Positions 42,561-63,953 of a stretch of DNA of 64,000 bases are shown in pieces. Made by a program: the position numbers and the translations under genes. Each line of letters opens with the position of its first letter. Within the stretch, counting starts at the first letter, position 1. Below the pieces are notes generated by a model. That model searched no databases. It was not told where the DNA came from and worked only from the letters and a program-made list of their open reading frames with translations. Source of the DNA: an uncultured Dehalococcoidia bacterium (GTDB lineage: Bacteria; Chloroflexota; Dehalococcoidia; Lucifugimonadales; UBA3495); NCBI GenBank assembly GCA_950072105.1, contig CATMOE010000010.1:1-64000 (forward strand). Reading direction: 5' to 3'.

Positions 42561-42697
42561 AACCGCCCATGTACGTAATCGGCACCGCGGGCCACGTGGA
42601 CCACGGCAAGTCTACCTTGGTCAAAGCCCTGACCAACATTGATCCCGACCGGCTCAAAGAGGAAAAAGAGCAGGTAGTGACAGTTCTTCCGAGATAA
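42561..42697 (+). pseudogene. selB: Truncated duplicate of the selB 5' end (42-aa ORF, ATG 42569)
   Basis: 42561-42671 matches 43595-43705 at 107/111 nt; reads [34 protein letters not shown], then QVVTVLPR*. Confidence 0.92.
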
Positions 42698-43602: not shown

Positions 43603-45468
43603 ATGTACGTAATCGGTACCGCGGGCCACGTGGACCACGGCAAGTCCACCTTGGTCAAAGCCCTGACCAACATAGACCCCGACCGGCTCAAAGAGGAAAA
43701 AGAGCGGGAGATGACCATTGACCTGGGCTTTGCCTGGCTGACCTTGCCCAGCGGACGGGAAATCTCCATCGTCGATGTGCCCGGACACGAGCGGTTCATC
43801 AAGAACATGCTGGCCGGCGTCGGCGGAGTTGACCTAGCCATGCTGATCGTCGCGGCCGACGAAAGCGTCATGCCCCAGACCCGGGAACACCTGGCTATCC
43901 TCGATATCCTCCAGATCCGCAAAGGGATAGTCGTCATCACCAAGACGGACACGGTTGACGAGGAACTGGTGGAGTTGGTCAAGGCCGAAGTGGAAGATTT
44001 CCTGGAAGGGACGTCCTTCCAGGGATGCCCCACGGTGGGCGTTTCCGCCTACACCGGCGACGGCCTTGACGAGCTCAAGTCCGTCCTAGATCAGGTGCTA
44101 GATAACACAGAGTCTCGGCGGGACCTGGGACGGCCCAGGCTGCCCGTGGACCGTAGTTTTACCATCTCTGGGTTCGGGACCGTGGTCACCGGAACGCTTA
44201 TCGACGGTGCTCTTACCGTGGGCCAGGAGGTGGAGCTGGCCAATTCGGGCCGCCACGCCCGGATCCGCGGTCTCCAAAGCCACCAATCCAAAGTGGACCA
44301 AGCCCAACCCGGCGTTCGTTTAGCGGTAAATCTATCGGGCCTGTCCCGCAACGACGTGCCGCGGGGCGAAGTGCTTACTTCCGCCGGTTGGCTGCGCCGG
44401 ACCAATCGATTGGACGCCAGGGTCAGGATGGTCAAAGGCGCGCCCCACTCCCTTCGTCACAACGAGGGCGTCACATTCCATCTATTTACCAGCGAGACCA
44501 CCGCTCGCGTCAGGCTTCTGGACGCCGACCGCTTGGCCGCTGGGGAAGACGGCTGGGTCCAGATACTCCTCACCGAACCCCTGCCCATGGTCAAGGGCGA
44601 CTTCTTCGTTCTGCGCTCGTCCGAAGACACACTGGGCGGCGGACAAGTGGTGGACCCCAACCCACGCCGCAGGCATCGCCGCTTCGTCGCTGAAGTCGTG
44701 GACCGGTTGATGACGCTGGACCAGGGTTCCGGCGAAGACGTTCTCCTTAGTGTGGCCGACCAGTGGGGCCCCTGCGACACTTCGGTTCTGTCCCAGCGCT
44801 CCAATCTTCCCGTTTCCGAAGTTCTAGAGCGCATCGAAGCGCTGGAGTCTCAGGGCGACGTGGTAGTCCTGGGCGAATTGGGAACCGACAGCGGCGCCGT
44901 CGTTTACTCCACTCAAGGATGGAGCGCCATGACCGGCAAGCTTTTCCAGGCATTGCGCGCGTACCACGACCAATATCCTCTGCGCCGGGGGGCTCCCTCC
45001 CAAGAGATCCGCAGCCGGTTGGGTCTCTCTCAGCCCATTTTCCTTAGGGCGCAAGCCCGGTTGACTGACCAAGAGTACTTAGTAGAAGAGGGGACGCATC
45101 TACGCCTTCCCGACCATCAAGTTGCCATGACTCCGGAGATGGAGGAAAAGGTTTCGGCATACATCAAAGCGTTGGAGCAAGACCCCTACTCTCCGCCCAG
45201 CGACCGGCCTTTGGACCCCGAGTTGCTGGGCGTTCTGGCGGAAGAGGGCAAGGTTGTACGGGTGAACGATACGATAGTGTTCGCCGCTTCTGCTTACCAA
45301 GAAATGACCGATCGCATCACCGAACACCTGAAGTCCAACGGCAGCATTACGGTGGCCGAAGCCAGGACCATGTTCGACACCAGCCGCAAGTACATTCTTC
45401 CCCTTTTAGAGTATTTGGATCAACAGCGCGTTACTCGCCGGGTTGGCGACGAACGGGTGCTGCGGTAA
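43603..45468 (+). CDS. selB: Selenocysteine-specific elongation factor
   Basis: [28 protein letters not shown]-terminal winged helices with [13 protein letters not shown]. Confidence 0.97.
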
Positions 45469-59804: not shown

Positions 59805-61406
59805 ATGTATTTTGATTCACGGCGTTCCACGGTCCTGGCAACCCACGGTATGGTCGCGACCAGCCAGCCCCTAGCGGCAATGGCCGGTGTACGCGTCTTG
59901 ATGGACGGGGGCAACGCCGTGGACGCCGCCATCGCCAGCGCCGCGGTGCTCAACGTGGTGGAGCCGGTATCCACCGGCGTGGGCGGCGACATGTTCGCTC
60001 TGATATGGAACAACAAGGAAAAGAGTGTCCGGTCGATAAACGGCAGCGGCCGCGCCCCCATGGGAGCGACGATCGATGCGCTGAAAGCCGAAGGACACAG
60101 CATGATGCCGCAAAAAGGCGTCCACTCTGTTACCGTGCCAGGAGCCGTCCATGGATGGGAAACCCTGCTGGAAAGCTGCGGGACCATGCCACTGTCCCAT
60201 CTCCTGCAACCCGCGATAAAGTACGCCGAGGAAGGTTTTCCCGTATCCGACATCATCTCCTTCCAATGGTCCAAAATGGTGGAGACGCTATCCCGGCTCC
60301 CCTCCGGTCAGGAGATGTTGCTAAATGGAAAGGCCCCCAAGCACGGCGAGATGATGCGCATCCCCACGTTGGGCCGTACCCTGAGGGCCGTGGCCGAGGG
60401 AGGGTCGGAAGCCTTCTATAAAGGCGATATCGCGGCGAAGTTGGCGGAGTTCATACAGGAGCAGGGCGGGTGTATGACCACCGCCGACATGGCCAATCAC
60501 ACTTCCGATTGGCAGGACCCCATCTCCACCGACTACCGGGGCGTGACCTGCTGGGAATGCCCGCCCAGCGACCAGGGTGTGGCCGCTCTGGAAGCGTTGA
60601 ACATCATCGAAGGTTACGACATCGCGGCGATGGGTTCCCAGACCGCCGACACGTATCACCATCTGATCGAGGCGATGCGTCTGGCTTTTGCCGACGCCTT
60701 CCAATACGTCGCCGACCCCGACTTCGCCCAGGTGCCGACCGCCGAAATGCTGTCCAAAGACTTTGCCAAAAAGCGCCGCGCGCTGATAGATCCCAGGCGG
60801 GCTTTGGAAACCGTCCCTTACGGCAAGATCCAAGGCGGCAGCGACACCGTCTACATCAGCGCGGTGGACGGTGAAGGCAACGCTTGCTCCTTCATCTACA
60901 GCATCTATTCCAACTTTGGGTCCGGCATGGTGGTGCCAGGAACCGGCATAGTGCTGCACAATAGGGGCGCCCTCTTCTCGCTGGAACCCGGCCACGTCAA
61001 CGCTCTGGAGGGAGGCAAACGACCCTACCACACCATAATCCCCGGGCTGGCGACCAAGGACAACGAACTGTACCTTTGCTACGGCGTGATGGGCGCATTC
61101 ATGCAACCCCAGGGGCACCTCCAAGTGATCAGCAACCTGGTGGACCACGGCATGGACGCTCAGGCTGCCCTTAATGCCCTGCGGTTCATCGTCACGGAAG
61201 CCGACGTTTCCTTGGAAGAAGGCATCTCTCCCCAGGTGTTAGCCGATCTGGATAACCGGGGACATAACACCAAGATGATCAGCAGCTACTACCGGGGCAT
61301 GTCCGGCGGGATGGGCGGCGCCCAGTTGATCCAACGAGACCCCGGCACCGGCGTCCTACACGGCGCGTCCGAACCCCGTAAAGACGGCTGCGCCATCGGC
61401 TGGTAA
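59805..61406 (+). CDS. ggt: Gamma-glutamyltransferase family protein
   Basis: GGNAVDAA, GGDMF, DTVYISAVD (Thr nucleophile), RPYHTIIP, SEPRKDG motifs. Confidence 0.93.
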   Translation: MYFDSRRSTVLATHGMVATSQPLAAMAGVRVLMDGGNAVDAAIASAAVLNVVEPVSTGVGGDMFALIWNNKEKSVRSINGSGRAPMGATIDALKAEGHSMMPQKGVHSVTVPGAVHGWETLLESCGTMPLSHLLQPAIKYAEEGFPVSDIISFQWSKMVETLSRLPSGQEMLLNGKAPKHGEMMRIPTLGRTLRAVAEGGSEAFYKGDIAAKLAEFIQEQGGCMTTADMANHTSDWQDPISTDYRGVTCWECPPSDQGVAALEALNIIEGYDIAAMGSQTADTYHHLIEAMRLAFADAFQYVADPDFAQVPTAEMLSKDFAKKRRALIDPRRALETVPYGKIQGGSDTVYISAVDGEGNACSFIYSIYSNFGSGMVVPGTGIVLHNRGALFSLEPGHVNALEGGKRPYHTIIPGLATKDNELYLCYGVMGAFMQPQGHLQVISNLVDHGMDAQAALNALRFIVTEADVSLEEGISPQVLADLDNRGHNTKMISSYYRGMSGGMGGAQLIQRDPGTGVLHGASEPRKDGCAIGW

Positions 61407-61535
61407 GGATTGTAGAGGCCGGATCAGCTTGTAAGTCTTCCTGCGTTGACACTAACCGAACCCGCAGGTAGACTCCGAAATGTATCGCAAGTTCACACCG
61501 TCCTTAAAAGTTGGTTTGCATCGATAGGAGTTCCC

Positions 61536-62501
61536 ATGGCACAGCCAGATAAGAACCGGTCCTTTTACTCCAAATATTTTCGGGAAGGCGAAGTTCTGCA
61601 CGGATTGCAGGTCCAGCCGGACGACCGCGAGTGGGTTCTATCCGTGCCTAAAGACGACGTTAAACCACATGATGTAGTCCTGTATCTGGGATGCAACGTG
61701 TTGAAAACCAGCAATCTAGTTCAGACGGTGGTGGATATATTCAAGTTGATGGATGTGGACTTCGTCGCGGTGGGCGGCGCCTCTTATTGCTGCGGGATCC
61801 AGCATTTCCAGCGAGGGGACGAGTCAGCGGCTCGCTCGATGTCGCGCACAACCATGGATAATTTCAAAAAGTTCCAGCCCGAGCAGGTGGTGATGTGGTG
61901 TCCTTCCTGCATCTACTTCTACGATGACATCATGGACCTAAAGGAAGAGATGCCCTTCCAGCACGTGACCGAATTCCTGATGCAGAACCTGGACAAGCTG
62001 GACTTCAAGCCCCAGCCGGAAGCGAAAGTGAGCCTGCACTACCATACGGGAAGGGAACAATCGGACATTGAGGCCCGCTCCGCTTTTCAACTTCTGTCCT
62101 TATTACCGGGCATCGAAGTGGCCGACTTGGGTAGCGATGCCCGGCTCAGCCGCCACTGCACGGCCGCGGCAAGGGAAAAAACCGGCGCCGAGATATGGGA
62201 CGGCATCATCAAGGGATCATTCGACCGGGCCGTGGAAGAAAACGTGGACATCTACTCCACCCTATACCACGGTTGCCAGCGTGACCTTTGCCGCCACGAA
62301 AAAGACTACCCCCTAAGGGTTGACCACTACCTGACGTTGGTGGGACGGGCGCTGGGCATCGAACATGAGGACCTGTACAAGAAATACATGATGATGGGCG
62401 ACCTGGAAGGCATCCTAGCTGAAACCAGCCCCTGTTCCGTTGCCAGCGGCATCAAGCCGGAAGAGGCCCGAGAGATCATACAGAAGACTTTCGTGAGCTA
62501 G
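61536..62501 (+). CDS. CCG-domain Fe-S protein (HdrB/GlcF-like)
   Basis: YLGC, YCCG, WCPSC, YHGC; AGGAG RBS before MAQPD. Confidence 0.75.
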   Translation: MAQPDKNRSFYSKYFREGEVLHGLQVQPDDREWVLSVPKDDVKPHDVVLYLGCNVLKTSNLVQTVVDIFKLMDVDFVAVGGASYCCGIQHFQRGDESAARSMSRTTMDNFKKFQPEQVVMWCPSCIYFYDDIMDLKEEMPFQHVTEFLMQNLDKLDFKPQPEAKVSLHYHTGREQSDIEARSAFQLLSLLPGIEVADLGSDARLSRHCTAAAREKTGAEIWDGIIKGSFDRAVEENVDIYSTLYHGCQRDLCRHEKDYPLRVDHYLTLVGRALGIEHEDLYKKYMMMGDLEGILAETSPCSVASGIKPEEAREIIQKTFVS

Positions 62502-62787
62502 GGCGGCCCTGACTTCTCGGAACCGGCTTCGTCCGGCGGCAGATGTCTGCTGCCGGCGGTTAGCCAGTTAGATCGCGTCATCACCTCTTTGGCAAACAAC
62601 TCCATGAACCGCATCACCTTGTCTTGCTCCAATTTCTGATGTGCGTGTTGGCCCCGAACCACTGAACGTCGTGCCGGCGCTCCAGACCGGTTGACCCTCC
62701 CCCACGGTTCCCATACAATTGGCTTCCGAATCGTTCCTAGCATATTGAACGCAACGCCCTCGCGTATATCGGGAGGCAGGAGGAACC

Positions 62788-63615
62788 ATGGCGCAAGAAG
62801 GATATTCGCATCCGGAGTTCTTGGTGGATGCCGAGTGGGTGGACGCCCATAAGGACGATGCCAACGTTGTTATCGTTGATTGCGACGTCGAGGTAGGCTT
62901 TGTCCGGGGCCACATCCCCGAGTCCGTGTTGGTGCCCGACAACTACGAGAAGAACCCGGACACGGGCCGGGTCCTTCTGATGGAACCGGACCAGTTCAAG
63001 GCCATGTGTCAGGGACTGGGTATCGGTGACGACACTCTAGTCATCGCATACGACAACTCCCAGAGCCTCACTGCCGCCCGGCTGTGGTGGGCGCTTAACA
63101 CCTATGGCCACGGCAACGTCAAGGTGCTGGACGGCGGGTGGCGCCGCTGGGTGTCCGAGGGCCACAAGATCAGCTTCGACCGTGCCCACCCCAACACCAA
63201 CGTGACCTTCACTCCCAAGCGCGATGAGTCGCTGCTAGTCAAGGTCGACGAACTCAAAGCCGCCTGTAATCTGGACAGCGCGGTTATCTGGGACGTGCGG
63301 AGCAACGGAGAGTGGGACGGCAGCGCTGGCCGGGGCAACAAGCGAGTCGGCCACGTACCGGGAGCGGTGCATCTGGAATGGTTCAACCTGATGGACCGGG
63401 ACACGCACCAGTTCAAGTCCGCCGGAGACATACGGCGCATCTTGTCTGAGAATGGCATCACGCCGGACAAGAACGTTTACACGTATTGACAGGGTGGCAT
63501 CCGAGCGGCGAACAGTGTGTTCGTCATGCAGTTGGTGGGATACAACAACACTAAGAACTACGATGGCTCCATGGGCGAATGGGCCAACATGGAGGACACT
63601 CCGCTGGAGGTCTAA
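62788..63615 (+). CDS. Selenocysteine-containing tandem rhodanese (SseA/TST-type sulfurtransferase), 275 aa
   Basis: TGA at 63487-63489 occupies the active-site position (TY-U-QGGIRA); the frame continues to the rhodanese signature YDGSMGEW and TAA at 63613-63615. Confidence 0.88.
63497..63529 (+). promoter_or_regulatory. Putative bacterial SECIS hairpin
   Basis: ggcgaaca-GTG-tgttcgtc stem-loop (63507-63525) with outer gcat/atgc pairing; loop about 25 nt after the UGA. Confidence 0.65.
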
Positions 63616-63662
63616 GCGGCAACCAAGCAATGAAATGATATGAGGAGCTTCGGACGGACGAC

Positions 63663-63953
63663 ATAGCAACATACGTTATTGGCGCAGTGCTAAGTGTGAA
63701 AGACCCAGAGAAGTTCGCCGCCTACCAACAGGCCGCCGGACCCACCGTGGCCCTATACGGCGGCAAGATCTTGGGTGGCGGTACCAACATTGAAGTTGCC
63801 GACGGAACCTGGTCACCCATCGGCATGGTGGTGATCGAGTTCGAAACCATGGCCAAGGCCAAGGAGTGGTACACATCGCCGGAATACACCGCGGTAAAAT
63901 CCGGGCGGTTGGACAGCACCGACGGCGGCTTGGTATTCCTGGACGCGGGTTAA
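63663..63953 (+). CDS. DUF1330 domain protein
   Basis: YVI..V.DPEKF..Y, YGGK, VVIEF...A.EWY.SPEY; homology begins at an ATA codon (63663). Confidence 0.85.
   Translation: MATYVIGAVLSVKDPEKFAAYQQAAGPTVALYGGKILGGGTNIEVADGTWSPIGMVVIEFETMAKAKEWYTSPEYTAVKSGRLDSTDGGLVFLDAG

Follow-up and report, generated by a model that had tools for sequence, protein, structure and literature searches.

Gene, reading frame and predicted product

The window analyzed here (64,000 nucleotides of contig CATMOE010000010.1, from an uncultured Dehalococcoidia bacterium) contains, close to its downstream end, a gene for a tandem-domain rhodanese of the SseA/COG2897 type that is interrupted by an in-frame TGA (Table 1). 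Under translation table 11, the open reading frame covers positions 62788-63489 and comprises 233 codons, ending with KNVYTY-TGA. When TGA is read as selenocysteine (Sec, U), the frame reaches a TAA at 63613-63615 and encodes 275 amino acids with U234, including the C-terminal tail that a preliminary description of this DNA had read beyond the stop. The Pfam scan detected two PF00581 stretches in the protein; the N-terminal domain is presumably the non-catalytic one, as in SseA/COG2897-type tandem rhodaneses. The structure model, built from an alignment of 37 sequences (pLDDT 92.9, compared to only 34 for a single-sequence prediction), locates residue 234 where strand 229-233 ends, ahead of helix 238-249, and a fold search with this model yielded a TM score of 0.89 to 1uar, indicative of a complete tandem rhodanese.

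Table 1 Features of the predicted Sec rhodanese locus, with positions in the window.
Feature	Positions	Strand	Basis or remark
selB, Sec-specific elongation factor, acting in trans	43609..45465	+	TIGR00475 over cut-off; 17 kb away, no operon with the rhodanese
Sigma-70-like promoter match, 10 of 12, perhaps belonging to this gene	62691..62719	+	Consensus match only; 1 found vs 0.5 expected from shuffles, weak
GGAGG, Shine-Dalgarno-like	62779..62783	+	Read off the sequence; 4 bases before the ATG
Full gene, 275-aa tandem-domain rhodanese (SseA/COG2897 type), TGA read as Sec	62788..63615	+	Frame, Pfam, structure matches, model
N-terminal rhodanese domain, residues 15-123	62830..63156	+	Pfam PF00581, two stretches, best 15-123
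In-frame TGA, codon 234, catalytic Cys position, predicted Sec	63487..63489	+	Alignment and conservation
Active-site loop U-Q-G-G-I-R-A-A, residues 234-241	63487..63510	+	Between strand 229-233 and helix 238-249 (loci read, model)
41 codons 3' of UGA, dropped by gene callers; catalytic helix and YDGSxxEW end motif	63490..63612	+	
Site of hairpin A, the family's usual SECIS-like element (+12..+26)	63501..63515	+	Broken here, 3 of 6 pairs left
Hairpin B, predicted SelB-binding element (+18..+36), 8-bp stem, GUG triloop 63515-63517	63507..63525	+	

On the same strand, genes for a gamma-glutamyltransferase and a CCG-domain protein lie upstream (within 59805-62501), and a gene for a DUF1330 protein lies downstream (63660-63953); none of the three is among the frequent neighbors in relatives. 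Clustering of the neighborhoods of the window and 80 loci revealed no conserved operon around the Sec rhodanese, most of the other clusters being shadow frames. The most frequent true neighbor in relatives, a 637-aa protein encoded about 2.6 kb upstream on the opposite strand at 60 loci, is absent here; by eye, this protein resembles an acyl-CoA synthetase.

The TGA is unchanged, with no other letter listed at this site, in the RNA-library contigs that cover it, which come from four runs in four studies; thus, the TGA is not an assembly error. These four runs cannot be taken as a sign of transcription, the contig depth being flat over intergenic DNA.

Conservation of the UGA codon and selection on the downstream frame

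The placement of the UGA at the catalytic cysteine, as originally proposed, holds: residue 234 falls in the same alignment column as the active-site Cys of 1uar (YC-R-I-A-E-R) and of the CysA-type 3hwi and 3aax (YC-R-I-G-E-R). The 60 related genomes contain 57 matches with at least 39% identity, of which 55 hold one TGA, spread over 47 genomes, and no stop codon was found in the weaker matches (below 39% identity) listed for these genomes. Codon 234 was read in 126 distinct genes, comprising 122 with TGA, two close homologs with TGT (in genomes G052 and G050) and two distant Cys paralogs of the present genome. The recurrence in relatives that the preliminary description had predicted for a Sec codon is therefore found in 122 of 124 close homologs, down to about 39-42% identity, and no further in-frame stop occurs in 106 TGA genes. 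Nine others among 201 genomes sampled from the phylum match at E = 1e-52 or better, with TGA at three loci and Cys at eight; these eight loci, like the G050 and G052 forms, carry Cys in the UGA column. Where the 80 closest loci have named records, these are metagenome-assembled genomes of Dehalococcoidia, SAR202 or Chloroflexota.

Purifying selection acts on the sequence beyond the UGA, as the readthrough interpretation had anticipated. In 368 non-independent pairs, dN/dS is 0.089 upstream of the TGA, 0.056-0.08 for the downstream frame and 0.056 for codons 248-274; in the same kind of comparison (368 non-independent pairs), synonymous change is 0.142 in codons 235-246 vs 0.48-0.52 elsewhere. 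The length of the tail is fixed as well, with 102 of 121 genes ending exactly 41 codons past the UGA. All 120 listed database relatives cover no more than 85% of the protein, and 118 of these are 231-235 residues long, so that the suspicion that standard pipelines would call the protein truncated is borne out. In public databases, the protein thus ends just short of the active site, and it is mis-annotated across SAR202/Dehalococcoidia, where a TGA copy occurs in 47 of the 60 related genomes.

The immediate context of the UGA is also constrained. All of the 106 TGA genes have TAT as codon 233 (positions 63484-63492 of the window span codons 233-235), even though Tyr is mostly encoded by TAC nearby (65 vs 12 at codon 231), and the base 3' of the UGA is always C in these 106 genes; in more distant relatives, codon 233 is also TAC, CAT or CAC. 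The TAT-UGA-C context possibly weakens termination.

A second TGA paralog (54%) is encoded in the present genome on contig C40, and tandem pairs of Sec rhodanese genes were identified in five relatives. At the tandem-pair loci L049, L050, L051, L052, L055, L088 and L114, the upstream copy falls in the U-Q-A-G-L-R clade, as does the C40 paralog. Separate Cys paralogs of the 1uar/CysA type are present in this genome as well (L027 and L029). The latter, L029/L030 (G000:C19:40905-41727, +), is a Cys-type tandem rhodanese in two pieces, likely with a frameshift between the domains.

Selenocysteine machinery and predicted selenoproteome

Besides selB, which had been noticed in the same window, the genome carries selA, selD (with an in-frame TGA of its own) and a tRNA-Sec with a UCA anticodon, recognized by both ARAGORN and Rfam; the search for selA, selC and selD suggested in the preliminary description thus found all three. 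About 1 kb upstream of selB, at 42575-42682 of the window, a short GTPase-like fragment (a 44-aa frame) corresponds to positions 1-37 of the selB model. Among the 60 related genomes, selA was found in 56 and selB likewise in 56, and all 47 genomes with a TGA copy of the rhodanese have selA or selB. The sole genome of the 60 in which neither gene was detected, G050 (85% complete), carries the Cys form. G052 has both selA and selB and yet carries the Cys form, so that Sec is dispensable there.

TGA is still an ordinary stop in this genome, terminating 404 of 1,466 long ORFs. An ab initio scan of the genome yielded 80 read-through candidates, 38 of which were scanned against NCBIfam and Pfam; by our own tally, about 31 of these 38 belong to domain families that the available portion of PMC13188914 lists as selenoproteins. 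Because the scan required a G-loop hairpin, loop positions among the candidates are partly selected. The genome is selenoprotein-rich, with about 30 candidate selenoproteins; for an abundant ocean lineage, this would amount to about 30 mostly mis-annotated selenoproteins per genome.

The predicted selenoproteome (L158-L197) includes GrdA, three GrdB-like proteins, a PrdB-like protein, four UGSC proteins, an OsmC-like protein, two SelW-like proteins, a deiodinase-like protein, DUF3179, two periplasmic binding proteins with CxxU, an AhpD-like protein, SelD, several peroxiredoxin/redoxin proteins and glutaredoxin-DinB proteins. Glycine-reductase-type selenoproteins are unexpected in a marine SAR202-related genome. 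There are four candidate Sec rhodaneses in the genome, namely the two tandem ones, a protein combining a Na+/H+ exchanger with a C-terminal rhodanese that has Y-C-A-U (L189, G000:C18:31959-33164, -) and a single-domain protein with H-U-M-G (L165, G000:C64:4736-5083, +).

Several candidates fall outside the rhodaneses. A thiolase-fold protein (L161, G000:C1:196468-197568, +; Thiolase_C_1, PRK06158-like) has a TGA in a Y-D-U-Y-T motif; among ten full-length relatives read, seven have TGA and three have Cys, and the TGA forms retain a hairpin at +11..+29 that is weaker or missing in the Cys forms. A 306-aa protein with R-A-U-E-E-G (L166, G000:C9:39405-40325, +) has no Pfam or NCBIfam match at the thresholds used; the TGA is present in all ten loci read, along with a conserved 6-bp hairpin with a GUC triloop at +17. 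Neither the thiolase-fold type nor the L166 motif appears in the selenoprotein table of PMC13188914 as far as that table was available. An adenylate/guanylate cyclase domain protein (L193, G000:C3:68962-69636, +) possibly has an N-terminal C-T-I-U, with a hairpin after the TGA, and in a 2-hydroxyacid dehydrogenase fragment (L190, G000:C20:3167-3691, -), a TGA near the end is followed by a hairpin.

Two overlapping SECIS-like hairpins

The preliminary description had reported a hairpin with a G-led loop after the UGA. Such a hairpin is indeed present (hairpin B, with a GUG loop); it is a shifted version, present in 17 of 122 genes, and not the usual hairpin of the family (hairpin A). Hairpin A occurs in 104 of the 122 TGA genes, its triloop at +18 being either GGC or GUC, and five of its six pairs hold in 104 of 104 genes. 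Double changes that preserve pairing were observed at two of the pairs, C-G to G-C in three genes and G-C to U-A in six genes. Among the four-fold columns of the gene, the three under the strongest constraint are codons 239-241, and both close Cys forms (G050 and G052) are devoid of the hairpin.

In the 17 type-B genes, including the present one, R-A-A-H-G is replaced by R-A-A-N-S or R-A-A-N-G, and an 8-bp stem spanning +18..+36 carries a GUN triloop at +26. The pairing of hairpin B holds in 135 of 136 cells across these genes, and the third loop base varies (G in eight, U in five and C in four). The codons for Arg239 and Ile238 are freed in type-B genes (homozygosity drops from 1.0 to 0.26 and from 0.96 to 0.40, respectively), and those for Phe245 and Val246 are fixed. 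One gene of the 122, L155, fits neither hairpin class. Folded alone, hairpin B has an energy of -8.1 kcal/mol; a stem of at least 8 bp with a G[G/U]N triloop starting from +16 to +30 was found after only 6 of 2,506 TAA/TAG stops of long ORFs in the same genome, which served as the control. Hairpins with a G[G/U]N triloop, like hairpin B, were detected in 21 of the 34 candidate genes listed for the genome, and in six candidate selenoprotein genes of the genome besides the present one, selD among them, the loops lie at +24 to +28. Folding energies around the hairpin are unremarkable when a wider stretch is taken (z = +0.43, -0.30, -0.97 and -0.29 in four folding windows), so that the hairpin would not stand out by energy alone.

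The two registers are closely connected. Seven of the eight pairs of hairpin B are already present in 37 of the 104 type-A genes, where the pair +22/+32 is usually the missing one (paired in 6 of 104). A single C-to-A change at +22, by which His242 becomes Asn, costs hairpin A one pair and at the same time creates the pair that hairpin B lacked. In six other genes, the His to Asn change is accompanied by Ala240 to Ser, and hairpin A is restored; L076 is intermediate between the hairpin types. In trees rooted on other families, type B is nested inside type A. These are quick trees, with one gene containing N bases left out. A single clean origin of type B was rejected, the 17 genes alone not being a clade (p-AU = 0.0011, in a 53-row quick tree without the SECIS columns), and the type-A gene L087 is nested among type-B genes on starred branches. 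Taken together, the position of L087 and the rejection of the clade indicate that the register changed at least twice.

These observations suggest that the SECIS element has probably moved 8 bases downstream in this lineage. With somewhat less confidence, we favor a one-base RNA switch within the codons of the catalytic site: the His242 to Asn change would break the ancestral SECIS, and this would be solved either via Ala240 to Ser (six genes) or via the 8-base move of the SECIS to a latent hairpin (17 genes), with L076 as an intermediate and at least one return (L087). An alternative that we consider rather improbable is that Sec is inserted with the aid of the remnant of hairpin A or of some other structure, and hairpin B is a by-product of codon choice. 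The GCG-GCG core and the pairs G14-C24 and C17-G21 of hairpin A do persist, the energy z-scores are not significant, and no compensatory double change in hairpin B was found within the 17 type-B genes. Moreover, these genes are close kin, 6 of 106 four-fold codon columns being invariant among them, three of those outside the hairpin, and over a mixed set of 40 genes hairpin B is only modestly above shuffles. However, three of the six pairs of hairpin A are mismatched in the present gene, whereas the near-complete pairing of hairpin B comes with a consensus GU loop and with fixation of codons 245-246, left free in type A; the rarity of such hairpins after control stops argues in the same direction.

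A search of the literature on SECIS position, spacing and evolution, with most subscription journals outside its scope, turned up no report of two overlapping SECIS registers in one gene family. The proposed register shift is a clean natural case in which the same codons serve both an RNA signal and an active-site helix. If the proposed switch is correct, this abundant ocean lineage would offer, in the Sec rhodanese family, a ready-made system in which to test the tolerance of SelB to SECIS position, and also how recoding signals steer active-site residues.

Proposed mechanism and functional alternatives

The observed position and conservation of the UGA, selection on the tail, Sec machinery, hairpin and fold lead us to conclude, with high confidence, that the gene encodes an intact SseA/COG2897-type two-domain rhodanese in which the UGA at the catalytic Cys very likely specifies Sec, with sulfane sulfur transfer via a selenenyl sulfide as the predicted activity. 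The checks that the preliminary description had proposed were, wherever carried out here, in favor of its reading. By sequence criteria, insertion of Sec234 by SelB at the predicted hairpin B appears almost certain: SelB carrying Sec-tRNA would bind hairpin B, with its GU loop 25 bases past the UGA. In evolutionary terms, hairpin B would have been latent in type-A genes until the change at +22 broke hairpin A and completed hairpin B.

By analogy with Cys rhodaneses, we consider double-displacement chemistry through a selenenyl sulfide to be likely. The selenolate would take sulfur from thiosulfate, a persulfide or 3-mercaptopyruvate, and E-Se-S- would then hand the sulfur to a thiol, thioredoxin or sulfite; selenium is the better nucleophile and the better leaving group. 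The chemistry of an enzyme-bound Se-S intermediate would be accessible on a small soluble protein with natural Cys variants. In the Cys enzymes, as described in the available part of PMC9369223, double displacement proceeds via a persulfide on the active Cys, and the loop residues set the specificity. The loop UQGGIRAA differs from the CRKGVT motif given there for thiosulfate sulfurtransferase, and the profile of the 3-mercaptopyruvate sulfurtransferase family, NF008557, scores 113.9 bits, below its cut-off of 250. Given these mismatches and the lack of a conserved neighborhood, no substrate could be inferred.

The main functional rival to sulfur transfer is selenium carriage or reduction of persulfides or peroxides by a true selenoprotein that is not a classical sulfurtransferase. 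Under this scenario, Sec234 would hold a second selenium atom, as a diselenide, for SelD, or would strip sulfur from persulfides and be recycled by thioredoxin. According to PMC9369223, a Cys rhodanese takes up selenium in vitro in a 1:1 ratio, as a perselenide, and it also reacts with thioredoxin; furthermore, the roughly 30 candidate selenoproteins imply a high selenium demand, and three Cys paralogs could handle ordinary sulfur transfer. The protein also has a weak score against the selenite-reduction rhodanese ExtH (65.5 vs a cut-off of 200). Nevertheless, we regard this function as unlikely: the gene does not adjoin selA, selB or selD, and there is no sel gene among the recurring neighbors listed. 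Cys members with the same loop (C-Q-x-G-I-R-A-A-H) exist, one of them in G050, which yielded neither selA nor selB, and a selenium carrier that itself requires Sec would be circular under selenium shortage.

Sulfur transfer by a Sec enzyme thus being the preferred reading, two further explanations concern the codon itself. A changed genetic code, with UGA specifying an ordinary amino acid throughout, or insertion of Cys at UGA could be suggested by the many in-frame TGA codons in the genome but is highly improbable; the code change is rejected because TGA still terminates the fraction of long ORFs given above and the UCA tRNA is a tRNA-Sec by both methods, and, in addition, the scanned in-frame TGAs are found mostly in redox-Cys motifs of known selenoprotein families. 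That the TGA is a real stop, in a pseudogene, a gene for a truncated non-catalytic protein or an erroneous assembly, agrees with the way gene callers read the database relatives but is ruled out in practice by the 122 conserved TGA codons, the fixed tail length, selection that is stronger on the tail than on the body, and the identical TGA in the four runs.

Comparison with known systems

The claim that Sec rhodaneses are computationally predicted and little characterized agrees with the literature. A Sec 'rhodanese-related sulfurtransferase' of COG2897 was predicted in 2005 from three Sargasso Sea sequences (PMC1088965, in the part available), and further members of this family are listed in the accessible portions of PMC2398784 and PMC1976440. 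In the corresponding portions of PMC9312934 and of the 2026 review PMC13188914, the family is still among the predicted rather than the verified selenoproteins, and no Sec rhodanese appears among the verified selenoproteins that the latter presents there. The gene described here is a new member, as assigned by sequence, of this Sec rhodanese family, known as predicted since 2005; given that the family has been in selenoprotein lists since then, it matters little as a discovery. The UxxG motif of the COG2897 Sec rhodanese (form 4) is present as U234-Q-G-G, whereas NF041203 (rhodanese selenoprotein form 3, CxU) scores 37.2 bits vs a cut-off of 115, and there is no CxU. The representatives used in the reviews, MQG53192.1 and MCY3690685.1, are not among the members listed for the ten clusters looked up. 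A search by title, with most subscription journals outside its scope, found no paper on selenocysteine or selenoproteins in SAR202.

Among the 2005 sequences in the available part of PMC1088965, AACY01016424 aligns to residues 202-275 without gaps, with 45 of 74 positions identical (counted by eye) and Sec in the same column; its loop, Y-U-Q-A-G-V-R-A-A-H, is the same as in the relatives L154 and L156. The two sequences of that set seen there have the type-A hairpin region, with R-A-A-H codons, whereas the present gene has R-A-A-N-S and hairpin B.

The Cys tandem rhodaneses 1uar (from Thermus thermophilus), 3aax, 3hwi and 3hzu (actinobacterial, CysA/SseA-type) and 1e0c (Azotobacter vinelandii sulfurtransferase) share with the protein the two-domain fold, the catalytic position and the YDGSxxEW end (E = 3.5e-40 for 1uar, in a match over the whole length; TM 0.86-0.89). 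They differ in identity (about 28-32%), in having Cys instead of Sec, and in the loop, which is C-R-I-x-E-R-S-S as opposed to U-Q-G-G-I-R-A-A. Thiosulfate sulfurtransferase (bovine/human rhodanese) and 3-mercaptopyruvate sulfurtransferase (SseA, NF008557) have the same fold and the same predicted double-displacement chemistry. However, identity to these enzymes is only 23-26%, and the protein is without CRKGVT and below the NF008557 cut-off; accordingly, a substrate cannot be transferred from them.

Finally, hairpin B agrees with all four constraints of the published bacterial SECIS model, as far as the model is laid out in the available text of PMC13188914. The two have in common a 3-nt loop, an 8-bp stem, GU at the start of the loop and a spacing of 25 nt (16-37 in the model), and the energy of -8.1 kcal/mol compares with -7.5 or lower in the model. 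Where the present family departs from the model, as presented in that text, is in possessing two overlapping registers that are convertible by one base change.
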